Assembly (NCBI GenBank): GCA_965213865.1
Contig: OZ243928.1
Location: 2,353,221-2,417,220 of the forward strand
DNA from: Arenicellales bacterium
GTDB lineage: Bacteria; Pseudomonadota; Gammaproteobacteria; Arenicellales; JAJDZL01
Reading direction: 5' to 3'
DNA length: 64,000 nucleotides
Part shown: positions 39,240-44,880 of the stretch, piece after piece
How positions within the stretch are numbered: the stretch's first letter is position 1
How the letters are laid out: each line of letters begins with the position of its first letter
Notes under the pieces: generated by a model
What the model was told of the DNA's origin: nothing
The model's database searches: none
The model's input: only the letters and a program-made list of their open reading frames with translations
Position numbers and translations under genes: made by a program

Positions 39240-39545
39240 ATGAGTGAAAATTCAAACCCAGCGCCGCCTGATTTTCTGGTTCACGACGAAACTGATTCAG
39301 TCGGTGTCGTGGTTGTGGAAAACGCCCAGGCAGGTGCGACTCTAACCGGCTGGATCATGGAGTCAGATGCGACCGTACACGTCGATGCCGTCGATGATAT
39401 TCCACTAGGGCACAAAATTGCCCTGGCTGACCTCGATGAAGGCGTCCAAGTCATTAAATACGGGCATCCGATCGGACGCACCATTCAGCCGATCGTCAAG
39501 GGAGCCCATTTGCATGTACATAACACAAAAACGGAAAAATGGTAA
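39240..39545 (+). CDS. UxaA-family small (SAF-domain) subunit; candidate sulfolactate sulfo-lyase SuyA
   Basis: 101 aa with a SAF-like N-terminal part of altronate-dehydratase-type enzymes (IPLGHKIAL...G..VIKYG..IG). It overlaps the large-subunit gene. Confidence 0.65.
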
Positions 39546-40717
39546 TGCCTAATTCAATAGAGATTCGCGGCTATCGGCGCGAAAATGGACGTGTCGGCAT
39601 CCGCAATCATGTAATTATTTTGCCTCTCGATGATTTGTCAAATGCGGCCTGCGAAGCGGTAGCCAGCAATATCAAGGGCACATTGGCGCTGCCGCACCAC
39701 TATGGCCGCTTGCAGTTTGGCGAGGATCTGGAATTGCATTTTCGCACACTGATCGGTACGGGCAGCAATCCTAACGTTGCTGCAGTGGTGGTGATCGGAA
39801 TCGAGCCCGGCTGGACCCAGCGCGTAGTCGACGGCATTGCCAAGACCGGCAAGCCGGTTGAGGGATTTGCCATTGAGCAGAACGGCGACATTGCGACAAT
39901 TGCTGCCGCATCACGAAAGGCCAAGGATTTTCTGCACTGGGCGTCAGAGCTGCAGCGCGAGCCGTGCGGAATTGAGGATTTATGGATTTCACATAAGTGC
40001 GGCGAATCCGATACCACCTCGGGTATCGGCGCCAATCCCACGGTGGGCAACCTGATTGACAAGCTTGACCCGCTGGGTGTGACGAATTGTTTCGGTGAGA
40101 CATCTGAAATTACCGGCGCCGAGCTGCTGTGCCGCGACCGCGGAGCAACACCGGAAGCCGGGGAGAAATTCCTCGCCACCTGGCAGGCGTATATGGACGA
40201 GGTCATTGAGCCGCATAAAACCAATGACTTGTCAGAAAGCCAGCCGACGAAAGGCAATATTGAAGGCGGTTTGACGACGATTGAGGAAAAGGCATTGGGC
40301 AATTTGCAAAAAATTGGCAAGCACACTGCCTATATTGATGTATTGCAGCCGGCTGAGGAGCCTGCGGCAGGGCGAGGGCTCTATTTTATGGACACCTCAT
40401 CAGCTGCTGCGGAGTGCGTGACACTGCAGGCGGCCGCCGGTTTTGTAGTCCATATATTTCCGACCGGGCAGGGCAACATTATCGGTCATCCAATCGAGCC
40501 GGTCATTAAGCTCACTGCCAATCCTCGGACAGTGCGAACGATGGGCGAGCACGTTGATCTTGATGTCTCGGCTATTTTGCGCCGTCAAATGACACTGGAT
40601 GAAGCTGGCGACCTGCTGATTGATATGACAGTGCGGACCTGCAATGGGCGTTTAACCGCTGCTGAGGCGCTCGGTCATCGTGAATTTGTGATGACGAAAC
40701 TTTATCGCAGCGCTTGA
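39539..40717 (+). CDS. UxaA-family large subunit; candidate sulfolactate sulfo-lyase SuyB
   Basis: 392 aa with a UxaA C-terminal-type sequence ([22 protein letters not shown]). The split two-gene architecture is as in SuyAB. Confidence 0.65.
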
Positions 40718-40745
40718 TCGCGCCAGCCCAGCAGAGATTCTTTCA

Positions 40746-42068
40746 ATGGCTGTCAATCAAATCAAAACCGCAATCGGCACAAAAGGCGGAGCCGATTCAG
40801 ACGAGCGTGTGGCTAAAGCCCGTTCCATTGTCGCCGACATGCTGCAGACAATTCGTGAAAACGGCGAGCAGGCCGTCATGGACTACGCCCGTGAGCTTGA
40901 TTCCTGGATCGGACCCGCTGTGATGAGGGAAACTGAAATCAAAAAGGCAAGCGAGGGGCTGAGCAGTGCGCTCAAACAAGATATTCAGTTTGCGCACAGT
41001 CGGGTCAAAGCTTTTGCAGAGCATCAGCTGCGGAGCCTGTCGGAATTTGAAGTCGAGTTGTCTGACGGTGTGATTGCCGGTCAGAAATTGATCCCGGTCA
41101 CGACCGCCGGCTGCTATATCCCGGGCGGACGCTACGCACATATTGCTTCAGCTGTGATGAGCGTCACCACTGCCAAGGTGGCTGGCGTGAAGAACGTCAT
41201 TGCATGCTCTCCGCCTCGAGGCGAGGTGGGTGTCAATCCGGTTATTGCATACACTGCCTCGCTTTGCGGAGCCGATTCAATCCTCGCAGTCGGCGGCGTT
41301 CAGGCAATCGCCTCGATGGCTTTTGGCCTGTTTACCGGACATGAGGCCGATATCCTGGTTGGTCCAGGCAACCAGTTTGTCGCAGAGGCAAAGCGCATGT
41401 TGTATGGAGAAATTGGTATTGATCTTTTTGCGGGTCCGACTGAAATTCTCGTGATCGCCGACGCTACCGCGGATCCGGAAATTGTGGCTTCCGATCTCAT
41501 CGGACAAGCCGAGCATGGTCCTGACTCGCCGGCTTGGCTGGTGACAACTTCGGAGCATCTGGCACGACAAGTGATTGATTTGATACCCCAGTATATTGAG
41601 CGCCTGCCGCAACCCAACCGCGATGCAGCTGAGATTGCATGGCGTGATTTTGGCGAGGTCATTGTGACCGACACCCGCGAAGAAGCAGTCAGTGTGAGTG
41701 ACAGGTATGCACCTGAACATCTTGAGGTACACACCGCAGACCTTGATTGGTGGCTTGACAATCTGGCGAACTACGGCTCGCTTTTCTTGGGTGAGGAAAC
41801 CACTGTTGCCTATGGCGACAAGTGCTCAGGTACCAATCATATTCTGCCAACGAGCGGTGCCGCCCGCTATACTGGCGGATTGAGTGTTGGCAAGTTCATC
41901 AAGACAGTTACATATCAGCGTATGAACCGTGAGTCTAACCGCAGTGTAGGCGCAGTGACGGCTAGAATCTCCAGACTGGAAGGCATGGAGGCACACGCTC
42001 TGACCGGAGACGACCGGTTGGCGAAATATTTCCCAGACGATGTTTTCGAACTGAAACACGCCAGCTGA
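40746..42068 (+). CDS. Histidinol-dehydrogenase-family oxidoreductase; candidate sulfopropanediol 3-dehydrogenase (HpsN-like)
   Basis: [20 protein letters not shown] and APEHLEV motifs of the HisD family. There are no his genes nearby, and it lies next to the SuyAB-like genes. Confidence 0.6.
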
Positions 42069-42079
42069 ACTGAATAAGA

Positions 42080-42841: not shown

Positions 42842-42868
42842 TAAATTTATTCCATAAAATATTTTAAT

Positions 42869-43864
42869 ATGAAAGCATTAGTCTATACATCTCCCAATCT
42901 AGTTGAATATCGAGATGAGCCTGAGCCGAACTTGAAAGCGACGGAGGAGTTGATTCGAATTGATGCGACCGGAATCTGCGGATCCGATTTGCATGCGTAT
43001 TTGGGGCACGATGATCGCCGGGTGCCGCCGTTGATTTTAGGCCATGAAGTCAGCGGAACAGTGATGTCAGGGCCACGCTCTGGAAGCAAAGCTGTCTTGA
43101 ACCCTTTGATTACTTGCGGCCGCTGTGATGATTGCATCAGCGGATTGACGAATCTGTGCCGAGAACGCAAGCTGATCGGAATGAATCGGCCCGGTGCATT
43201 TGCAGAAATGATAGCTATTCCAAAGGAAAATATCGTTGAGCTGCAAGGTGATGTCAAAAGCGAGCATGTGGCGATGGCAGAGCCTGCAGCAGTGGCGCTG
43301 CATGCGGTACGCCTTGTTGAGCAAACCGCTTATCGGCCGCTTTCTGAAGGTTCAGCATTGGTCATCGGCGGCGGCGCTGTCGGTGTTTTTTGCGTTTATT
43401 TTCTCCGCGACTATGGCTGCAAGGATATTATGCTTGCCGAGGTCAATCCAGACCGCCGCCGAACGGTGGAACGCACTGGTCTTTGCGAGGTTGTCGATCC
43501 CATACAATCTCGACTCGAAAGCGATTCTTTTGATGCGGTTTTTGACGCAGTCGGGAACGCCAAGACGCGCAATTCCTCGGTAGACGCAGTCAAATCCGGT
43601 GGTGTGATCACTCACATCGGACTCAGCTCGGCCGATGGAGAAATGGATGTGCGTCGCATGACCTTGGCTGAAATCACGTTTATCGGAACCTACACCTACA
43701 CCGCACGTGATTTCCGGGTTGCGGCAGACAAGCTCCACAACTTTGATATTGGTCCATTGGACTGGATTGATGAGCGTCCGCTGAAAGACGGCAATGCCGC
43801 TTTTCAGGATTTGCTTCAAGGTCAGGTTGCCGCGCCAAAGATTATTCTGCGTCCATCGCTTTAG
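42869..43864 (+). CDS. Zinc-dependent medium-chain alcohol dehydrogenase
   Basis: GICGSDLH, GHEVSG, the CGRCDDCISG structural-zinc loop, and the GGGAVG Rossmann motif. Confidence 0.85.
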   Translation: MKALVYTSPNLVEYRDEPEPNLKATEELIRIDATGICGSDLHAYLGHDDRRVPPLILGHEVSGTVMSGPRSGSKAVLNPLITCGRCDDCISGLTNLCRERKLIGMNRPGAFAEMIAIPKENIVELQGDVKSEHVAMAEPAAVALHAVRLVEQTAYRPLSEGSALVIGGGAVGVFCVYFLRDYGCKDIMLAEVNPDRRRTVERTGLCEVVDPIQSRLESDSFDAVFDAVGNAKTRNSSVDAVKSGGVITHIGLSSADGEMDVRRMTLAEITFIGTYTYTARDFRVAADKLHNFDIGPLDWIDERPLKDGNAAFQDLLQGQVAAPKIILRPSL

Positions 43865-43869
43865 CGCTG

Positions 43870-44880
43870 TTGGAGCCAACGATAACGCTAGCCGCAGCCG
43901 AGGCAGCGAACCTCGCACAGCGGGCTATTCATGCTCAAGGGGCACAACTGGAGATCGCCCAGACGGTTGCCGATGCGCTTGTGCTGGCAGACTGTGACCA
44001 GCAATATTCACATGGCATGATTCGTGTACCGTCGTACTGCGAGCAGATGCAAGCCCGCAAAGTCAGCGGCCGGGCCCGAGCGATTGTACGCCTGGTGACA
44101 GCGACTGCAGTTGAAATTGATGTCAACGGCGGATTCGCTTTCCCGGCTCTGAATGCTGCTGTCGAGCAATTGGTTGAGATCAGTGCTTCGCAAGGTATTG
44201 GAATTGCGTCGGTCAGCAGATCGCATCACTGCGGTGTAGCGGGGCATATCGTAGAAAAACTTGCCTGCCATGACTGCATTGGCATGATGTTTGCCAATAC
44301 ACCCAAGGCCATGGCGCCGCCGGGTGGTACGAAAGCGCTGCTGGGAACAAATCCAATTGCATTTGCCTGCCCTGTTGCCGATGCTGAGCCGCTTGTGATT
44401 GACTTGTCTATGTCAACGGTCAGTCGAGGCAGAATTCTAAAGTTTGCCGCTGAAGGCAAACCCGTTCCTATTGGATGGGGCAAAGACAGGGAAGGGCGAG
44501 ATACGACAGAGCCAGGCAAAATCATTGGAGGCGGTACATTGAGTGCGTTTGGCGGTGAGAAGGGGGCAGTATTGGCGCTGCTGGTGGAAATCTTGGCAGC
44601 GGCTTTCACAAATAGCAGATTTGGCTATGAAGCTTCATCTTATTTAGACGGGGAGGGCGGCCCACCAGAAACGGGACAATTTATTCTATGTGCCACCTCG
44701 AATTTATTCGGCAACAATTTTTCCATACGCGTACAGCAGATTTTAGAACAGATGCGCACTCAAAGCGGTGTGCGAATCCCTGGCGCCAGACGCTTTGCAG
44801 CCCGAGCGCTGGCGCAATCGAGGGGGATTGTTTACCAGCGATCATTAATTGATCAGATTAATCAGCTTGCCGGCGGATGA
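43870..44880 (+). CDS. Ldh_2-family (malate/L-sulfolactate-type) dehydrogenase; candidate sulfolactate dehydrogenase
   Basis: 336 aa with SHGMIRVPSY and SRSHHCGVAG segments typical of the Ldh_2 family. It has a non-ATG start. Confidence 0.7.
   Translation: MEPTITLAAAEAANLAQRAIHAQGAQLEIAQTVADALVLADCDQQYSHGMIRVPSYCEQMQARKVSGRARAIVRLVTATAVEIDVNGGFAFPALNAAVEQLVEISASQGIGIASVSRSHHCGVAGHIVEKLACHDCIGMMFANTPKAMAPPGGTKALLGTNPIAFACPVADAEPLVIDLSMSTVSRGRILKFAAEGKPVPIGWGKDREGRDTTEPGKIIGGGTLSAFGGEKGAVLALLVEILAAAFTNSRFGYEASSYLDGEGGPPETGQFILCATSNLFGNNFSIRVQQILEQMRTQSGVRIPGARRFAARALAQSRGIVYQRSLIDQINQLAGG

Follow-up and report, generated by a model that had tools for sequence, protein, structure and literature searches.

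A conserved chromosomal operon with a probable role in 2,3-dihydroxypropanesulfonate breakdown in an Arenicellales bacterium

A 64,000-nucleotide stretch of DNA from an Arenicellales bacterium (GenBank assembly GCA_965213865.1, contig OZ243928.1, positions 2,353,221 to 2,417,220; hereafter the window, in whose coordinates features are given unless a genome position is stated) carries six open reading frames (ORFs) on the + strand at 39240–44880. An earlier note on this DNA had described six co-oriented genes here, and the ORF listing of the window and the Pfam families agreed with it in coordinates and in family membership. The order is suyA, suyB, hpsN, hpsO, hpsP and an Ldh_2-family gene, with intergenic gaps of −7, 28, 11, 27 and 5 nt; because the junctions measure only −7 to 28 nt, the genes are packed in an operon-like manner. 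No transporter, regulator or exporter was found inside the six-gene cluster, confirming what had been noted before, sulfite exporter included. Family calls were made from score gaps in PDB and profile searches and from diagnostic residues, both relative to characterized proteins. Judged by these sequence comparisons, the six genes very probably form a chromosomal, vertically inherited operon for the breakdown of the C3 sulfonate 2,3-dihydroxypropanesulfonate (DHPS).

The first two genes, suyA (39240–39545, + strand, 101 amino acids (aa); Pfam SAF) and suyB (39539–40717, + strand, 392 aa; Pfam GD_AH_second and GD_AH_C), overlap by 7 nt and display the split UxaA architecture. They are predicted to encode the small SAF-domain subunit and the large catalytic subunit of (2R)-sulfolactate sulfo-lyase, respectively. 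SuyB is 67% identical to SuyB of Cupriavidus pinatubonensis and 72% identical to that of Paracoccus versutus, while SuyA shares 47% identity with its counterpart in the hps-suy cluster of C. pinatubonensis and 43% with that of P. versutus. When SuyB was searched by tblastn against 72,556 annotated plasmids, 13 matches at 63–75% identity were followed by a gap down to ≤40%. The C. pinatubonensis match sits in a LacI-hpsN-hpsO-MFS-ZnADH-suyA-suyB arrangement (MFS, major facilitator superfamily; ADH, alcohol dehydrogenase), which is the published hpsRNOUP-suyAB cluster, and the P. versutus match in GntR-suyA-suyB-'sulfate exporter family transporter' (suyR-suyAB-suyZ). In the 80 suyB loci of related genomes that served as the operon comparison set, suyA is always 5′ of suyB. 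SuyB homologues at 83–91% identity number in the thousands, and their name at the Joint Genome Institute (JGI) is (2R)-sulfolactate sulfo-lyase subunit beta. The PDB search returned no SuyAB structure; only the galactarate dehydratase GarD matched, at 122 bits.

The same six genes could in principle form a sugar-acid or amino-acid module with no sulfonate link, in which a split altronate/galactarate-type dehydratase would stand beside a histidinol dehydrogenase and polyol dehydrogenases of a generic kind. Such a module would agree with public records in which homologues of SuyB appear as 'UxaA family hydrolase' or 'D-galactarate dehydratase', yet with SuyB the GarD equivalog model reached only 129 bits, below its cut-off of 731. 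By these comparisons the first two genes belong to the SuyAB group, apart from other UxaA enzymes (≤40%), as the earlier note had proposed for the split enzyme.

The third gene, hpsN (40746–42068, + strand, 440 aa; Pfam Histidinol_dh), is predicted to encode the Zn- and NAD+-dependent (R)-DHPS 3-dehydrogenase (sulfopropanediol 3-dehydrogenase). Searched against all PDB sequences, its product scored 577 bits to the C. pinatubonensis sulfopropanediol 3-dehydrogenase CpHpsN (8V35) and 514 bits to the Ruegeria pomeroyi (R)-DHPS dehydrogenase (8WWE), twice the scores to histidinol dehydrogenases (HisD), none of which exceeded 256 bits. It shares 62% identity with HpsN of C. pinatubonensis. In the CpHpsN structure, a G-R-Y-A/S-H motif ends in a histidine (His126) that binds zinc or the sulfonate, Glu318 and His319 are catalytic, Asp352 is a zinc ligand and Lys353 contacts the sulfonate (PMC11382572). 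The Arenicellales protein carries GRYAH at residues 128–132, aligned to CpHpsN 122–126, where HisD has a G-S-A-P-L-like sequence, and keeps PEHLE (with the catalytic E-H) and GDK (with the Asp/Lys pair) at positions aligned to CpHpsN. The genome has a separate housekeeping hisD at C1:724–726 kb, whose product is 33% identical to HpsN and reads GGQASYP and GDY at the HpsN sites, lacking the sulfonate-contact His and Lys. The score gap, the sulfonate-specific motif and the separate hisD all speak against a histidinol dehydrogenase within a sugar-acid or amino-acid module. What favors one is that the NCBIfam hisD model TIGR00069 (equivalog_domain) passes gene 3 at 447 bits over a cut-off of 244, which could lead to such genes being annotated as histidinol dehydrogenases. 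On scores and residues, gene 3 is HpsN and not HisD, and the earlier identification of this HisD homologue holds. A third HisD-family paralogue, 45–49% identical to HpsN and thus at the level of neither HpsN nor the housekeeping HisD, was observed in the congeners G123, G171, G103, G143, G151, G088, G083 and G167; no copy was seen in the genome under study.

Genes 4 and 5, hpsO (42080–42841, + strand, 253 aa; Pfam adh_short) and hpsP (42869–43864, + strand, 331 aa; Pfam ADH_N and ADH_zinc_N), are predicted to encode two DHPS dehydrogenases, one belonging to the SDR (short-chain dehydrogenase/reductase) family and one to the Zn-dependent MDR (medium-chain dehydrogenase/reductase) family. The top solved match of HpsO in the PDB was R. 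pomeroyi HpsO (8WWF, 292 bits), and HpsP scored 313 bits to 8WWD, which is HpsP of Dinoroseobacter shibae (PMC11131964), with the next solved match at 110 bits. The C. pinatubonensis counterparts are 50% (HpsO) and 49% (HpsP) identical. Mutagenesis established that Ser145, Gln147, Tyr158 and Lys162 of R. pomeroyi HpsO and His59, Glu60 and Glu139 of D. shibae HpsP matter (ISME J 2024; PMC11131964); Gln147 recognizes the C2 hydroxyl of R-DHPS, and Ser145, Tyr158 and Lys162 form the SDR triad (PMC11131964). All four HpsO residues recur at the same positions in an alignment with 8WWF that needs no gaps, and HpsP keeps His59, Glu60 and Glu139 together with the catalytic Cys and the four Cys of the structural zinc site. 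Gluconate 5-dehydrogenase and threonine dehydrogenase were the top profile models for the SDR and the Zn-ADH, as generic polyol dehydrogenases might suggest, yet both stayed below their cut-offs. Moreover, all five core proteins match the experimentally defined C. pinatubonensis cluster at orthologue level. Checked by scores and residues, the HisD-like and UxaA-like proteins did not fall with true HisD or with GarD/UxaA enzymes, and a sugar-acid or amino-acid module is highly improbable.

Published accounts disagree on whether HpsO and HpsP act in C2 epimerization or in enantiomer-specific C3 oxidation. In a model from C. pinatubonensis, the two proteins constitute a two-enzyme DHPS epimerase that works via a 2-oxo intermediate (PMC11382572, PMC13335735). 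In a second model, built on R. pomeroyi data, R- and S-DHPS are each oxidized at C3 by their own enzyme to sulfolactaldehyde, after which the S-branch depends on SlcC and ComC in addition to a sulfolactaldehyde dehydrogenase (PMC11131964). The suggestion in the earlier note that additional dehydrogenases serve DHPS epimerization can therefore be kept for the identity of the SDR and the Zn-ADH as HpsO and HpsP, but not as a settled role.

The sixth gene (43870–44880, + strand, 336 aa, TTG start uncertain) encodes an Ldh_2-family oxidoreductase (Pfam Ldh_2, 287 bits) of probable ComC type. The protein keeps the family-invariant His/His pair (His44 and His116 equivalents), the substrate Arg, GTNPIA and GGxKG, the motifs reading SHGMIR, SHHCG, GTNPIA and GGEKG. 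We favor a ComC-type sulfopyruvate/(R)-sulfolactate dehydrogenase as a reasonably likely function, the least certain call in the operon, on the basis of gene context and not of closeness to characterized ComC. The gene directly follows hpsP in ~30 Arenicellales loci and adjoins suyAB in ~25 Alphaproteobacterial and other loci, and it tracks suyAB rather than hpsNOP, one locus (L026) holding suyAB and ldh2 only. A reverse plasmid search from the Ldh_2 protein gave nine best matches (40–44%), all 0.1–15 kb from suyB; the plasmids that carry them are the nine that also gave the top SuyB matches. The Alphaproteobacterial loci read suyAB-TctCBA (a tripartite tricarboxylate transporter, TTT)-2-Hacid_dh-Ldh_2, as in the sulfolactate cluster of Chromohalobacter salexigens, whose layout is reportedly SuyR-SlcHFG-SlcC-ComC-SuyAB. 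Homologues at ~45% identity are named (2R)-3-sulfolactate dehydrogenase by JGI. In P. wurundjeri, suyA-suyB-slcC-comC are co-induced (PMC12421959).

It is possible, if doubtful, that the core pathway is right and the Ldh_2 enzyme is not ComC. Its substrate would then be a different 2-oxo, 2-hydroxy or imino acid; it might, for instance, be an imine reductase resembling DpkA, or a lactate/malate-type dehydrogenase that handles the product pyruvate. It could also serve in an undescribed DHPS step. Several results count against the ComC assignment and toward such an enzyme. The top solved match in the PDB was P. syringae DpkA at 202 bits, compared to 114 bits for M. jannaschii ComC, and the archaeal ComC equivalog NF040650 gave 160 bits, under its cut-off of 500. 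The gene is the least conserved of the operon (41–51% identity across loci versus 84–93% for SuyB), the published C. pinatubonensis cluster functions without an Ldh_2 gene and the route from R-DHPS through R-sulfolactate to SuyAB has no need for ComC. Nor was a dedicated SlcC partner found, since the Alphaproteobacterial 2-Hacid_dh genes between suyB and ldh2 match only at 30–34% in the genome. Against a non-ComC enzyme stand the association with suyAB, plasmids and TTT-containing loci included, the JGI naming of the homologues and the fact that sulfopyruvate and sulfolactate are the sole 2-oxo/2-hydroxy acid pair of the pathway besides pyruvate. The ComC call in the earlier note is thus upheld by linkage to suyAB across many taxa and weakened by the failed archaeal equivalog and the closer DpkA. 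An Ldh_2 gene in the operon fits the need for ComC in the sulfolactaldehyde model, although without SlcC that S-branch is incomplete in this genome. A connection of the Ldh_2 enzyme to Xsc through ComDE (sulfopyruvate decarboxylase) was also considered and is not supported, as ComDE scored no higher than 103 bits in the genome, under its cut-off of 221.

The cluster had been presented as lying between two insertion sequence (IS) copies, and two IS5-family copies do flank it. Copy 1 (36933–37788, − strand, 856 bp, with DUF4096 and DDE_Tnp_1 ORFs) lies 1.45 kb from one end of the cluster and copy 2 (50488–51343, − strand, 856 bp, with DUF4096 and DDE ORFs) 5.6 kb from the other; neither belongs to the pathway. 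The six genes might be read as cargo of a composite transposon, or as recently acquired mosaic DNA bounded by these elements, given that the copies are in direct orientation, 99.4% identical and bracket 12.7 kb, and that the surroundings include a restriction–modification pair as well as decayed AbiE genes. The genome (one 3.29-Mb contig, 53.8% GC), however, contains 18 full-length copies of the same element at ≥98% identity, and being flanked by it is therefore not special. More directly, the 12.3 kb at window positions 37840–50139 align as one 12.4-kb block at 86% nucleotide identity to the nearest relative found, the Arenicellales metagenome-assembled genome L001, where both ends are free of IS. 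Relative to L001, insertions occur only at 34537–37839 (decayed AbiE and IS) and 50140–53065. IS copy 1 is absent at the corresponding L001 site; copy 2 lies within the second, 2.9-kb insertion, whose flanks are a 994-bp duplication (49146–50139 and 53066–54059, 99.7% identical, including TatD), and L001 has a single copy of the 994-bp segment and no 2.9-kb insertion. The order LOG-PRT-[operon]-hyp261-bactofilin-hyp158...TatD (PRT, phosphoribosyltransferase) is furthermore kept in ~30 species-level genomes. Because the region is collinear with the IS-free L001 and its neighborhood is kept in ~30 species, the operon is part of the ancestral chromosome, and the IS copies are recent insertions incidental to it. 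The flanking by IS copies thus stands, whereas the mobility it implied is contradicted: a composite transposon or acquired island is ruled out by the collinearity and the conserved neighborhood, leaving next to no probability for transposon cargo.

The six-gene order itself recurs in ~30 species-level Arenicellales genomes, far beyond chance. SuyB was found in 29 of the 30 sampled genomes of the genus (the exception being 63% complete), in 34 of 35 of the family and in 85 of 201 of the order, and HpsN in 32 of the 35 family genomes. Within one Arenicellales genus and family, the HpsNOP-SuyAB route is hence inherited vertically and almost universal. Among the papers listed in a library search, none mentions Arenicellales in connection with DHPS, hpsN or suyAB. 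Variants of the LOG-PRT...hyp261 slot were also seen: it holds suyAB only in L025 and L030, suyAB and ldh2 in L026 and suyAB-hpsO-hpsP-ldh2, with hpsN undetected, in L024. In the same-genus genome G058 (locus L102), hpsNOP is gone from the suyAB slot and sits directly after orthologous dctPQM.

For uptake, the best candidate was found outside the window. Eight DctP-family binding proteins are encoded in the genome, one of which (C1:1376306–1377499) is adjoined by DctQ and DctM. This TRAP (tripartite ATP-independent periplasmic) transporter, dctPQM, occupies genome positions C1:1376306–1379630 (L092:8307–11629) next to obg-proB, 1 Mb from the operon. Its DctP is 76% identical to the DctP embedded in suyAB-dctPQM-hpsNOP of three other loci, and dctPQM orthologues (60–82% identical) are found inside suyAB-dctPQM-hpsNOP (L031, L047) and dctPQM-hpsNOP (G058/L102). 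The DctP orthologue is missing from both family genomes that lack hpsN. Searched against the PDB, DctP matched only SmoM and binders of ketoacids and lactate, at ≤122 bits, with no HpsK entry among the matches, and nothing above 37% identity was found on plasmids. From this synteny, dctPQM is a good candidate for the DHPS importer, and uptake would probably proceed through this unlinked system at 1.376–1.380 Mb. In a rather unlikely variant, the Ldh_2 enzyme would not be a plain ComC and its step would define a variant pathway, either as the sole handler of the (S)-branch, oxidizing or racemizing (S)-sulfolactate without SlcC, or by reducing another oxo-sulfonate; dctPQM would then import DHPS as a system of separate descent from HpsK. 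If true, an Ldh_2 enzyme handling the (S)-branch alone would speak for the sulfolactaldehyde/sulfolactate route for S-DHPS, which is contested.

Candidate genes for the disposal of sulfite were likewise found elsewhere in the genome. AprA, the alpha subunit of adenosine 5′-phosphosulfate (APS) reductase, is encoded at C1:2766755–2768551 (L103) and scored 992 bits over a cut-off of 642, and the organism may oxidize sulfonate-derived sulfite to sulfate via APS. Three TauE-family proteins and one molybdenum cofactor (Moco) sulfite-oxidase-family protein are also present. No SuyZ-type exporter (PF03601) was found in the genome, and relatives of its three TauE proteins at E ≤1e-15 were not found in the 80 suyB loci. 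Sulfite would probably be oxidized via APS reductase or exported by the TauE-family proteins. A second desulfonation route, ald-xsc-pta, is encoded at C1:1193921–1198651 (L095, L101), with Xsc (sulfoacetaldehyde acetyltransferase) scoring 943 bits over a cut-off of 676. It lies directly beside a type I-G CRISPR–Cas locus (Cas3g, Cas4g/Cas1g). A second Xsc-like thiamine diphosphate (ThDP) gene at C1:601348–603033 has an internal TGA.

In the resulting scheme, HpsO and HpsP would render both DHPS enantiomers usable, HpsN would convert (R)-DHPS with two NAD+ to (R)-sulfolactate and SuyAB would then cleave (R)-sulfolactate to pyruvate and sulfite. The Ldh_2 enzyme would most likely interconvert sulfopyruvate and (R)-sulfolactate, like bacterial ComC, and would thereby funnel sulfopyruvate, derived from cysteate transamination or from (S)-sulfolactate via another enzyme, into SuyAB. 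The path from DHPS via sulfolactate to pyruvate and sulfite that the earlier note had drawn is sustained in its HpsN, HpsO, HpsP and SuyAB links by comparison with characterized or solved proteins. Beyond the doubts attached to the Ldh_2 gene, some observations weigh against the scheme. Enzyme specificity is predicted from 47–72% identity to characterized proteins. For HpsO, the PDB entry 6LE3, deposited as 'gluconate 5-dehydrogenase', followed close behind R. pomeroyi HpsO at 279 bits; 6LE3 also carries the S-L-Q motif and may be an unrecognized HpsO, and the operon context supports the HpsO identity of the SDR. Promoter and terminator scans gave counts equal to those of shuffled controls, and no regulator was found. 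Lastly, the DctP orthologue is missing from six hpsN-positive genomes of the family and is thus not an obligate partner; at least three of these six have a different DctP ~6 kb upstream of suyA.

Among the neighboring genes, the phosphoribosyltransferase PRT (38594–39196, + strand, 200 aa; Pfam Pribosyltran) ends 43 nt upstream of suyA. Its clusters in the atlas are named 'putative hypoxanthine phosphoribosyltransferase'. PRT is found upstream of suyA in ~30 loci, with LOG usually divergent from it, and the scans turned up nothing resembling a promoter in the 43 nt between PRT and suyA. PRT may be co-transcribed with the sulfonate operon, and it probably acts in purine salvage, outside the pathway. 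A role as regulator was rejected, as the protein looks like an ordinary hypoxanthine-type phosphoribosyltransferase. Downstream, a pair of ORFs at 47804–49050, encoding a small methyltransferase and a 180-aa protein, has counterparts in L001 alone (96% and 91%) and in none of the other ~30 syntenic loci. The pair is a truly accessory element in an otherwise conserved stretch.

Few algal sulfonates in the ocean are as abundant as DHPS, and its consumers shape marine carbon and sulfur flux. Work on these consumers has so far centered on Roseobacters, SAR11 and Cupriavidus. The operon encodes an already known, widespread pathway and leaves the known biochemistry unchanged. The presence of HpsNOP-SuyAB, Xsc and APS reductase in one genome points to these Arenicellales, which are uncultured gammaproteobacteria, as consumers of DHPS and taurine that can draw energy from the sulfite released, and synteny singles out a candidate family of DHPS TRAP transporters.

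The pathway combining hpsNOP with SuyAB is widespread, occurring in 93 of 272 hpsN-bearing organisms across Proteobacteria (PMC11382572). The closest characterized system is hpsRNOUP-suyAB of C. pinatubonensis JMP134 (Mayer et al. 2010; PMC11382572), which shares the five catalytic proteins HpsN, HpsO, HpsP, SuyA and SuyB (identities 62, 50, 49, 47 and 67%, respectively) and the same chemistry from DHPS via (R)-sulfolactate to pyruvate and sulfite. The gene order differs, suyAB coming first in the Arenicellales operon, which lacks the LacI-type HpsR and the MFS transporter HpsU and has an extra 3′ Ldh_2 gene; uptake is probably by the unlinked TRAP system. Furthermore, the C. pinatubonensis cluster resides on a betaproteobacterial megaplasmid, whereas the Arenicellales operon is on a marine gammaproteobacterial chromosome. 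Compared to hpsKLMNOP of the Roseobacters R. pomeroyi and D. shibae (PMC11131964, PMC13335735), HpsN, HpsO and HpsP are orthologous and all structure-defined substrate contacts are kept. Uptake in the Roseobacters is also of the TRAP type, but is encoded in the operon there, while the candidate TRAP system is unlinked in the Arenicellales genome. D. shibae uses SuyAB, as does the Arenicellales operon, in contrast to R. pomeroyi, which sends sulfolactate via SlcD to CuyA or Xsc. Finally, the sulfolactate clusters of C. salexigens and Paracoccus (SuyR, SlcHFG, SlcC, ComC and SuyAB) likewise pair SuyAB with an Ldh_2-family dehydrogenase. In comparison with these, the Arenicellales operon and genome are without a close SlcC and without the TTT transporter, and the operon has its Ldh_2 gene joined to a DHPS module.

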